From Akkermansia sp. (GTDB lineage Bacteria; Verrucomicrobiota; Verrucomicrobiia; Verrucomicrobiales; Akkermansiaceae), in assembly GCA_045545975.1 (NCBI GenBank), contig JAZQCA010000022.1, forward strand, positions 571-64,570: a DNA stretch of 64,000 nucleotides, in the 5' to 3' direction. Positions 19,929 through 21,568 of this stretch are shown piece after piece; the stretch's first letter is position 1; each line of letters begins with the position of its first letter. The notes below the pieces were generated by a model. That model was not told where the DNA came from and searched no databases. It saw only the letters and a program-made list of their open reading frames with translations. A program made the translations under genes and the position numbers.

Positions 19929-20015
19929 CGGATGGGGTGAGATTCGAACTCACGGAAGGGATAAACCTTCGGCGGTTTTCAAGACCGCTGCATTAAACCA
20001 CTCTGCCACCCATCC
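19929..20015 (-). tRNA. tRNA-Ser(TGA), long variable arm, CCA not encoded
   Basis: Acceptor GGATGGG/CCCATCC, discriminator G; anticodon arm GCGGT-CTTGAAA-ACCGC; T arm GTGAG-TTCGAAT-CTCAC. Confidence 0.96.
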
Positions 20016-20153
20016 TAATATAGCAGCACAGCTCAGTGCATGCGGGTATACTAGCCCAGCAAAAGTAAGGATGCAAGACTTTTCTGCGGCATGACACAAA
20101 AGTGAGAGGAAGCCACCTCAACTAACCGCCGAGAATAGTTGGCACGTCTGACC

Positions 20154-20393
20154 TCATGAGTCCCCGAAACTGGCGAAATCCGGGAATCCATCCGGGGCAT
20201 GACGTTCGAGAGTTTCAACCAGTTGACCGAGTGTGAGCAATTTACTCTCCTCTTTGCTCATATAGGCAGAGAACTGGTAGAGGGCAAGTTTGAGCACAGA
20301 GGTCCGATCGAGCTGGCGTTCATTCATGATGTCAGAGATAAAACGATGCATTTCTTTTGTGAAACGGAAGGAGCAGATTATTCGTGATGCCAT
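20154..20393 (-). CDS. Small ribbon-helix-helix (CopG/Arc-like) DNA-binding protein, putative
   Basis: Alternating strand IICSFRF followed by two amphipathic helices (TKEMHRFISDIMNERQ, DRTSVLKLALYQF); ATG at 20393 preferred over the TTG at 20438. Confidence 0.6.
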   Translation of the reverse strand: MASRIICSFRFTKEMHRFISDIMNERQLDRTSVLKLALYQFSAYMSKEESKLLTLGQLVETLERHAPDGFPDFASFGDS

Positions 20394-20445
20394 AGCGATT
20401 TTGGGGGTGTGAGGTTGTGTATGATATTTTATAGACAAATCATAG

Positions 20446-20463
20446 CGGACTACTAATCCGCTG
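20446..20463. repeat. Left copy of an 18-bp perfect inverted repeat (CGGACTACTAATCCGCTG)
   Basis: Exact reverse complement of 20609-20626; the site 20444-20462 reads AGCGGA-CTACTAA-TCCGCT (6-bp arms, 7-nt asymmetric spacer). Confidence 0.95.
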
Positions 20464-20608
20464 CACTCCGATTACCTCGCAAAGTATTCATATAAGAGGA
20501 CTTGCAACTTTTCCAAGGGAGTGTATTCGCATACAAATAAGACAAAGCGAAGCCTATTATTGTTCATAAGTTACGCCAATTCAGAGCTATTACGCATTTT
20601 TTTCTTTA

Positions 20609-20626
20609 CAGCGGATTAGTAGTCCG
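20609..20626. repeat. Right copy of an 18-bp perfect inverted repeat (CAGCGGATTAGTAGTCCG)
   Basis: Exact reverse complement of 20446-20463; reads AGCGGA-TTAGTAG-TCCGGT. Confidence 0.95.
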
Positions 20627-20656
20627 GTTCAGAATTCAAATATAACGTCATACAAT

Positions 20657-21568
20657 ATGAGAGCCCCGTTTCTTACAAATTTCAGCATCTGTCACCTGTG
20701 GAATACTCTACACCGCATCTTCCCCCGGCATATAGCTGGGCAAAGCTTTGCAGAAGCTGTGGAAATAGCGCTACAGGAAAAAGCAATGCGCAGACCTCGC
20801 ACACGAGCAGAGTTCCGAAACGTATGCGACAGGATTCTTCGACATACTCCAAGCCTGGCAGATCGAAAAATCTCACGCATATCCCGGGAAGAATGCGGCG
20901 AAATCATCCGCAGAGTTTTCCCTACGGCGCGGCAACAAGAGAAGGCCCGGCGTATTCTCCACAGTCTGTTTGAGATTAGTATACGGTACGGAAAATGCGT
21001 AAGTAATCCCATTGTCGGTATGGCGCGACCACAGCTCTGTGAAAACGAGGTTCGCCCATTGTCGTGGGAGCACTTACGAGCGCTGCTGAGAACAGCGAGA
21101 AAAAGAGAATTTCAATCTTGTATGCCTCCGCTCGGACTCATGCTTTGGGCGGGAATCCGACCGGCAGAGGTGTGCAGACTCCGCTGGAGCGACATCGACT
21201 GGGAGGAGAATGTCATAACTCTACGCCCCCAGCATAGTAAAACAGGAGGAGCTCGCCATGTTACACTCCAACCGGTTCTGGCTCGATGGCTGCAGGAGTC
21301 AGGAATGACGAGAGAGGGAAAAATCTGCCCTCCGAACTGGGAACGACGATGGAAGCGTTTGCGGACAATCGCCGGTGTGCTGCCCTGGCAGCAAGATGTG
21401 CTACGCCACACCTTCGCAAGCTATCATGCTAAGTTTTGGCGAAACTTCCCTCTGCTGCAAACGGAGATGGGGCACCGTTCAGCCGAATTGCTGAGGACGC
21501 GCTATCTGAGTATGTATGGTGTAACCAGAGAACACGCGATCATTTTCTGGCGCCCCGGAGGGTTGTGA
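20657..21568 (+). CDS. Tyrosine recombinase (core-binding plus catalytic domain, no arm-binding domain)
   Basis: GIRPAEV (R), SKTG (K), QDVLRHTFASY (xxLRH), MGH, RTRY (Y); N-terminal helical core-binding region ending in CVSNP; 303 aa. Confidence 0.92.
   Translation: MRAPFLTNFSICHLWNTLHRIFPRHIAGQSFAEAVEIALQEKAMRRPRTRAEFRNVCDRILRHTPSLADRKISRISREECGEIIRRVFPTARQQEKARRILHSLFEISIRYGKCVSNPIVGMARPQLCENEVRPLSWEHLRALLRTARKREFQSCMPPLGLMLWAGIRPAEVCRLRWSDIDWEENVITLRPQHSKTGGARHVTLQPVLARWLQESGMTREGKICPPNWERRWKRLRTIAGVLPWQQDVLRHTFASYHAKFWRNFPLLQTEMGHRSAELLRTRYLSMYGVTREHAIIFWRPGGL

Follow-up and report, generated by a model that had tools for sequence, protein, structure and literature searches.

A probable recombinase-linked split-promoter inversion switch, assembled in the off state, upstream of a small regulator-like gene of Akkermansia

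Analysis of the intergenic region that separates a small gene from a divergently transcribed tyrosine recombinase gene in Akkermansia sp. points to a recombinase-linked invertible switch of the Akkermansia CGGATT..AATCCG class, in which the promoter of the small gene is in all likelihood split by the recombination site and which is assembled here in the off state. The locus lies in a stretch of 64,000 nucleotides, referred to below as the window, on contig C22 of a genome of 2.3 Mb and 99.9% completeness. The recombinase would exchange strands within the asymmetric centre of two core sites of 15-18 bp and invert positions 20446-20626. A -35 hexamer, TTTACA, and the T-rich tract that precedes it would ride on the segment, and a -10 hexamer, TATGAT, would stay fixed one base beyond the other arm. 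The recombination site itself would then be the 17-nt promoter spacer, filled by the right-arm sequence when the segment is flipped, and in that state only would the two halves join as TTTACA-17-TATGAT. Transcription from the flipped promoter is predicted to start near position 20432 and to lead to a 79-aa, probably ribbon-helix-helix (RHH), DNA-binding protein. In the present state the small gene should be silent because the -35 hexamer faces the recombinase side, where it meets no -10. The features are collected in Table 1.

Table 1. Features of the switch locus (positions in the window) and the switches of recombinase paralogues in the same genome (positions in the contig named).
Feature	Position	Strand	Remarks
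tRNA-Ser(tga)	19929-20015	minus	140 nt from the small gene/recombinase pair
Cargo (small) gene	20154-20393	minus	79-aa protein starting MASR
Fixed -10, TATGAT	20439-20444	minus	one base outside the left arm
Left arm of inverted repeat	20446-20463		distal to the recombinase gene; core-type site CGGA-CTACTAA-TCCG plus CTG
AGTGCA (2/6)	20462-20467	minus	present occupant of the -35 position (off state)
Invertible core	20464-20608		145 bp, between the arms
T-rich tract	20596-20604	plus	directly upstream of the -35, moves with it
Mobile -35, TTTACA (5/6)	20605-20610	plus	now faces the recombinase side; last two bases within the repeat
Right arm of inverted repeat	20609-20626		proximal to the recombinase gene
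Tyrosine recombinase gene	20657-21568	plus	303 aa; transcription directed away from the switch
Staphylococcal-nuclease-like gene, then FMN reductase gene			beyond the recombinase gene
Paralogue switch L046	C4 3979-4135		TTGACA-17-TAACAT; off; cargo: surface protein with Chlamydia-PMP repeats
Paralogue switch L048	C52 47681-47826		TTGACT-17-TATGCT; off; cargo: two exported proteins
Paralogue switch L051	C58 17189-17349		TTGACG-17-TAAATT; off; cargo: 264-aa protein
Paralogue switch L052	C32 3040-3206		TTGACA-17-TATGGT; off; cargo: MmeI-family restriction-modification enzyme
Paralogue switch L049	C37 16273-16456		TTGACT-17-TACCAT; on

The invertible segment, arms included, measures 181 bp and is entirely intergenic. 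Its two arms, 145 nt apart, are complementary at 18 of 18 positions; the pair is unique in the window, where 0.03 such pairs are expected by chance, and unique in the 2.3-Mb genome. Each arm consists of CGGA, an asymmetric centre of 7 nt and TCCG. The arms read CGGACTACTAATCCG and CGGATTAGTAGTCCG and depart from the motif CGGATT-3 nt-AATCCG by one substitution each, mirrored in both, so that the variant found here is CGGACT / AGTCCG vs. the consensus CGGATT / AATCCG and the 18-nt repeat is still perfect. The motif CGGATT..AATCCG is attributed to Jiang et al. 2019 in PMC13343947, where it also annotates the cps1 capsule inverton of A. muciniphila, verified by experiment, and it was rediscovered as inverton group 138, together with a "promoter motif 138-2" (PMC11892184). 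Judged by its sequence, the repeat is this published Akkermansia inverton motif and the switch belongs to a known class. A further, outer inverted repeat of 15 nt (20418-20432 / 20640-20654, 80% complementary, core TGTATGA / TCATACA) is found about 14 nt beyond each arm, within the leaders of both divergent genes, and the flanks of an orthologous locus (L008) hold a different outer repeat, GTTATGTGTTA; these outer repeats may be operator or accessory sites.

The original prediction had proposed that inversion of this segment would assemble a near-consensus promoter from a -35 lying inside and a -10 lying outside the invertible unit. Upon re-reading, the three hexamers on which it was built proved base-exact, namely TATGAT and, 17 nt upstream of it, AGTGCA on the minus strand, and TTTACA on the plus strand. 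In its present position TTTACA is without a -10, being followed at 17 and 18 nt downstream by TTCAGA and TCAGAA, and in silico inversion of 20446-20626 indeed yields TTTACA-17-TATGAT on the minus strand. The promoter of the flipped state matches the consensus at 10 of 12 positions, compared with 7 of 12 for the best junction-spanning promoter of the present orientation, and it is in the flipped state only that two sigma-70-type hexamers stand 17 nt apart upstream of the gene. No promoter of at least 9/12 was found within 20464-20608. For comparison between loci a strict promoter was defined as a -35 with at least 5/6 matches, a spacer of exactly 17 nt and a -10 of the form TAnnnT. This genome has 421 such promoters among 4.59 million positions, i.e., 9.2e-5 per position per strand, and with this background a strict promoter exactly across the recombination site is not expected by chance. 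The T-rich tract possibly corresponds to an UP element, and T-runs resembling it also precede the -35 in two other loci (L023 and L028).

Promoters of the sigma-70 type are present elsewhere in the genome, for example TTGCAA-17-TATAGT in front of tRNA-Ser(gga). The tRNA-Ser(tga) gene of the window has TTGCAT-17-TAGTAT on the minus strand at 20048-20076, 32 nt upstream, and owing to this promoter of its own it is placed outside the output of the switch. On the recombinase side, no conserved -10 was found at the window, the motif-class or the small-gene loci. The idea of a toggle that in the present orientation gives the recombinase a promoter was rejected, as the only candidate there is CAGAAT (CATAAT in other strains) at an unfavourable spacing of 19 nt.

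Conservation of the hexamers and of their spacing in homologous loci had been set beforehand as a test of the split-promoter reading. A search with the small protein gave matches in 102 of 151 genomes of the genus (E up to 1e-3), and the 30 loci that it returned were examined. In 25 of these, from 25 genomes of the genus, a GGAT-type inverted repeat pair lies upstream of the small-gene match, with arms 125-170 nt apart and the gene-side arm ending 20-141 nt from the match. The test was passed at 24 of these 25 loci, the window included, where a strict promoter directed toward the small gene forms in exactly one orientation; among them the -35 is always in the invertible part, the -10 always in the fixed flank and the spacing always 17. 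The comparative evidence therefore upholds the reading of a split promoter with a mobile -35 and a fixed -10. The mobile hexamer is TTGACA, TTGACG, TTGACT or TTGACC in the homologous loci, and TTGCCA once; TTTACA of the window is the weakest -35 of the family. The fixed hexamer of the other 23 promoter-forming loci is TATACT, TATGCT, TACACT, TAAGCT, TAATCT or TACGCT. As many as 23 of the 24 promoter-forming loci need flipping, and are thus off, and a single one (L069) is assembled now. Most of the five loci in which no repeat pair was detected have degenerate sites with the pattern retained. In a sister species whose small protein is 84% identical, the T-run, TTTACA and TATGAT are kept and the right ~60 nt of the invertible core are conserved; the left half of the core has diverged past recognition. 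A separate observation concerns L066 (G282:C60), the sole locus among those examined with a promoter that also points away from the small gene (TTGACA-17-TAGCGT, in the present orientation), and which may toggle between two outputs; the genome concerned, G282, carries five copies of the small gene.

The geometry also extends to switches with other repeats. The recombinase belongs to a family with eight paralogues in this genome, six of them with a switch of their own; the copy of the window has seven clear paralogues at 39-47% identity. Five of the paralogues have upstream their own perfect or near-perfect inverted repeat pair, with 112-137 nt between the arms, whose sequences, for example TACGGATTCCGAAAGCGTAA and AGCATTCGGAATGCT, are unrelated to CGGATT..AATCCG. 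In each of the five, a single configuration gives a promoter of 9-10/12, with TAnnnT at a distance of 17 nt, and this promoter is directed away from the recombinase (Table 1). For the one that is on, no clear target open reading frame was found; its promoter faces the 3' end of a convergent riboflavin-synthase-like gene and may drive an antisense or small-RNA output. Since the geometry is conserved though the repeats differ, a shared recombinase half-site cannot explain it. Within the CGGATT..AATCCG class itself the picture is less uniform. Among 28 motif-class switches chosen by a -35 adjoining the site, 4 are in the on state, 12 are off and have their TAnnnT in the opposite outer flank, and for the remaining 12 neither outer flank shows a strict TAnnnT at exactly 17 nt; 10 of the latter have a flank that begins with TA but reads only TAnnnn. 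On these sequences, the split-promoter rule appears to hold strongly in the small-gene family and more loosely in the motif class overall.

These data bear directly on another explanation, namely that the segment does invert but that TTGACA and the CTA-type flank serve the recombinase as recognition or accessory elements and are not halves of a promoter. The small gene would then be controlled otherwise, e.g., from a wholly internal promoter of the segment or through termination of the transcript. In favour of this, the distal site frequently takes the form of a longer palindrome (TATAG-core-CTATA), such that the TA of the -10 could belong to a binding arm, and several homologues have CTATA on the inner flank of this site too; besides, one locus (L031/L040) has TTGACA or TTTACA on both inner flanks, and the 12 of 28 motif-class switches mentioned above have no T at position 6 of the -10. 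On the other hand, and as the main counter-argument, the five switches of the same genome keep the exact -35, 17-nt spacing and TAnnnT with different repeats, and the -10 position reads approximately TAYRCT, with T6, in 24 of the 25 small-gene loci. Moreover, the assembled promoter aims at a gene start 30-60 nt away in the small-gene loci and in four of the five other switches, and TTGACA is found at one inner flank only in nearly all loci, an asymmetry for which an accessory site has no need. As no internal promoter of 9/12 was found in the core either, we regard this explanation as unlikely, and promoter halves as the better description of the two hexamers.

The neighbouring recombinase is presumed, from its sequence and position, to be the invertase of the segment. 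It matches PF00589 (Phage_integrase) with 50.1 bits vs. a cut-off of 27.1, and in a family alignment of ten sequences (47-64% identity to the window protein) R168, K195, R250, H273 and Y283 are invariant. The first histidine of the HxxR motif is replaced by an aspartate, D247 (QDVLRH, window 21395-21406), in all ten aligned sequences, which makes it a family trait and not a defect of the window copy. Its start codon, 30 nt from the repeat, was placed by means of the conserved residues F31 and A34. The closest named relatives are annotated as Akkermansia sp., and in species at 65% identity the SNase and FMN_red genes flank the recombinase as well.

Both orientations of the switch are observed among homologous loci. 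Comparison of the orientation between species had to be made from the -35 and the T-run, since the invertible cores are too diverged to align (local scores of 9-14 in either direction). The on state is found in three other species. In L069 (G288) the order is recombinase, proximal site, core, TTGACA-17-TACGCT and small gene; in L023 (= L091, G290) TTGACA-17-TAAGCT lies between homologues of the recombinase (57% identity) and of the small protein (41%); and in L094 (G381) TTGACT-17-TATGCT precedes the small gene, on a contig that begins 32 nt upstream of the -35, within the invertible segment. L023 and L094 came from other searches than the set of 25 loci. Other motif-class switches likewise occur in opposite states (L019 on vs. 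L020 off; L041 on vs. L021 off). Within the present species no flipped molecule was seen: nine out of nine contigs of the species or near relatives (L003, L004, L053-L058 and the window itself) are off, as are all contigs that encode the exact recombinase, the small protein or close relatives, and a scan of a metagenome collection for the on junction gave 0 matches, a result of little weight given that a control scan for the -35 plus repeat, common to both states, found a single contig with the element in that collection. Of two Logan contigs, one (L006) begins exactly 13 nt into a right arm of 18 nt and the other (L014) exactly 15 nt into one of 16 nt; a start at 31 nt minus the repeat length is what is expected of a branch in a k=31 assembly graph if both orientations are present. 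This is a weak hint of mixed populations, which we do not count as evidence of flipping. In several metagenome-assembled genomes (MAGs) the small-gene matches are located 90-350 nt from contig ends, and contigs often end in or at the switch (G304, G307, G310, G316, G324, G345, G381).

The uniform off state of the nine contigs from this and the sister species is what a fossil switch would show, one that inherited its repeats and hexamers but ceased to invert, leaving the small gene permanently silent; the drift of the -35 to TTTACA and of the arm from the consensus CGGATT to CGGACT would fit as well. Such decay is nevertheless improbable for a locus whose 18-nt arms remain perfect, with the C/T change compensated in both, whose recombinase gene has an undisturbed frame and retains every conserved catalytic position, and whose small protein is 84-97% conserved across strains with no stops. 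Furthermore, the sister species has kept TTTACA, the T-run and TATGAT even as the left half of its core diverged freely, and the two Logan contigs starting at a presumed branch point, a weak hint only, go in the same direction. Hardly credible, finally, is the idea that the two genes are what remains of the integrase and excisionase of an integrated mobile element, with the repeats as attachment-site debris: the gene pair does lie close to tRNA-Ser(tga), and a small DNA-binding gene beside a tyrosine recombinase does resemble a xis/int pair, but the repeats are inverted rather than direct and just 145 nt apart between two genes, the module recurs with the same architecture in varied neighbourhoods of many genomes of the genus, in some cases with no tRNA (e.g., beside a Glt_symporter gene or a KdsB-like open frame), the SNase and FMN_red neighbours are shared with species at 65% identity, and most members of the paralogous recombinase family have switches of their own.

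We further analyzed the small protein that the switch would control. Orthologues have the same start and are 62-97% identical. The window protein has no Pfam or NCBIfam match, and a profile search of PDB sequences found no relative; among 22 homologues the most frequent sub-threshold Pfam match is RHH_1 (PF01402), in four sequences, with a best E of 0.019. An AlphaFold2 model calculated with 22 sequences (pLDDT 87.9, compared with 58.8 when four sequences only were used) has an extended N-terminus followed by helices 13-26, 30-45 and 55-64. The Foldseek list obtained with this model is led by RHH proteins, every one with E above 0.1, and includes the TacA2, PrpA, KacA and AtaR antitoxins, the DNA-binding domain of PutA, ParG (1.6 Å over 41 columns) and the RHH domain of ParD (2.0 Å over 47 columns). 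Because these E values are all above 0.1 and the Pfam match is sub-threshold, an RHH fold is plausible for the modelled protein and is not established. The N-terminal 40-45 residues also match the starts of open frames of 290-340 aa in many genomes of the genus (e.g., G366:C10:14704-14916 and G350:C2:50344-50538), which suggests that the putative DNA-binding module is fused to larger proteins as well. No conserved downstream partner gene was found, the neighbours varying between a CD225/GYF gene, a KdsB-like open frame and, in the window, the tRNA, and its genomic context makes the small gene look like a cargo of one gene.

In Akkermansia, a gut commensal that has received much study, invertons are known regulators of capsule and surface genes. 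Here the same machinery appears to gate a small regulator-like protein, whose gene follows a switch of this type in much of the genus. Neither PMC13343947 nor PMC11892184 describes a cargo of this sort, a small and probably DNA-binding protein whose gene is almost always found off. Should the protein be a DNA-binding regulator, a single inversion could affect many genes together in a minority of the population. Tentatively, the flip-only protein might be a phase-variable transcription factor or a recombination regulator, reprogramming other genes or feeding back on the invertases, e.g., by driving the segment back to the off state, and the use of the site as spacer might represent a general principle of construction, so far undescribed, that applies to Akkermansia and related switches across unrelated repeat families; we hold this combined proposal to be possible rather than probable. 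Feedback, if true, would explain the near-universal off state of the assemblies. The position of the -10 has a practical consequence too: once it is known to lie in the fixed flank, the on/off state and the controlled gene can be called from sequence alone. A motif search that stops at the borders of the invertible segment will find the -35 alone, and this may underlie the weak score of the published promoter motif of group 138, for which only weak promoter-like enrichment was reported (PMC11892184).

Comparison with known systems places the switch closest to the Akkermansia CGGATT..AATCCG invertons, for which experimentally observed flipping in A. muciniphila has been published and whose promoter is described as embedded in the inverton (PMC13343947; PMC11892184). 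In these two papers no statement of a -10 outside the inverton was found, and text searches of the literature for a split promoter in inversion systems found none. The switch of the window shares with these invertons the repeat motif, the intergenic position, the size (130-300 bp there, 181 bp here), a conserved promoter-type motif inside the element, and homologous loci in both orientations; the promoter-type motif, TTTACA here and TTGACx in the homologues, is confined to one of the two inner flanks, at a distance of one base from the core site. It differs from them by the one arm base, by a cargo that is a small regulator-like protein instead of a capsule or surface gene, and by a recombinase gene directly beside the switch, whereas 26 of 31 motif-class loci checked have no relative of the window recombinase within 1.5 kb.

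The polysaccharide promoter invertons of Bacteroides fragilis, controlled by Mpi (PMC11892184), resemble the present switches in forming families of small invertible promoters with shared repeat motifs that serve phase variation in a gut commensal. Mpi, however, is a serine recombinase that acts globally, on Bacteroides-type promoters that are wholly internal, whereas here each switch would have its cognate tyrosine recombinase and the promoter is of the sigma-70 type and split. The division of the promoter itself recalls insertion sequences. In the junction promoters of IS911 and IS30 the -35 is situated in the end of the element and the -10 in the flank or in the other end, and a DNA rearrangement likewise brings a mobile -35 to a separate -10 at the correct spacing; these promoters nevertheless arise by transposition or circle formation and not by reversible inversion, and they are not dedicated switches of host genes. 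The fimS switch of E. coli is a 314-bp element with 9-bp repeats that contains the whole promoter and is inverted by the tyrosine recombinases FimB and FimE. Common to fimS and to the switch described here are a short invertible promoter element, short inverted repeats, an adjacent tyrosine recombinase gene and on/off control, predicted in the present case, of the adjacent gene. In fimS the -35 and the -10 are both inside the element; here the -10 is outside the left arm, the only hexamer that moves is the -35, and the recombination site provides the spacer. In its predicted working the switch resembles fimS, in its construction it does not.
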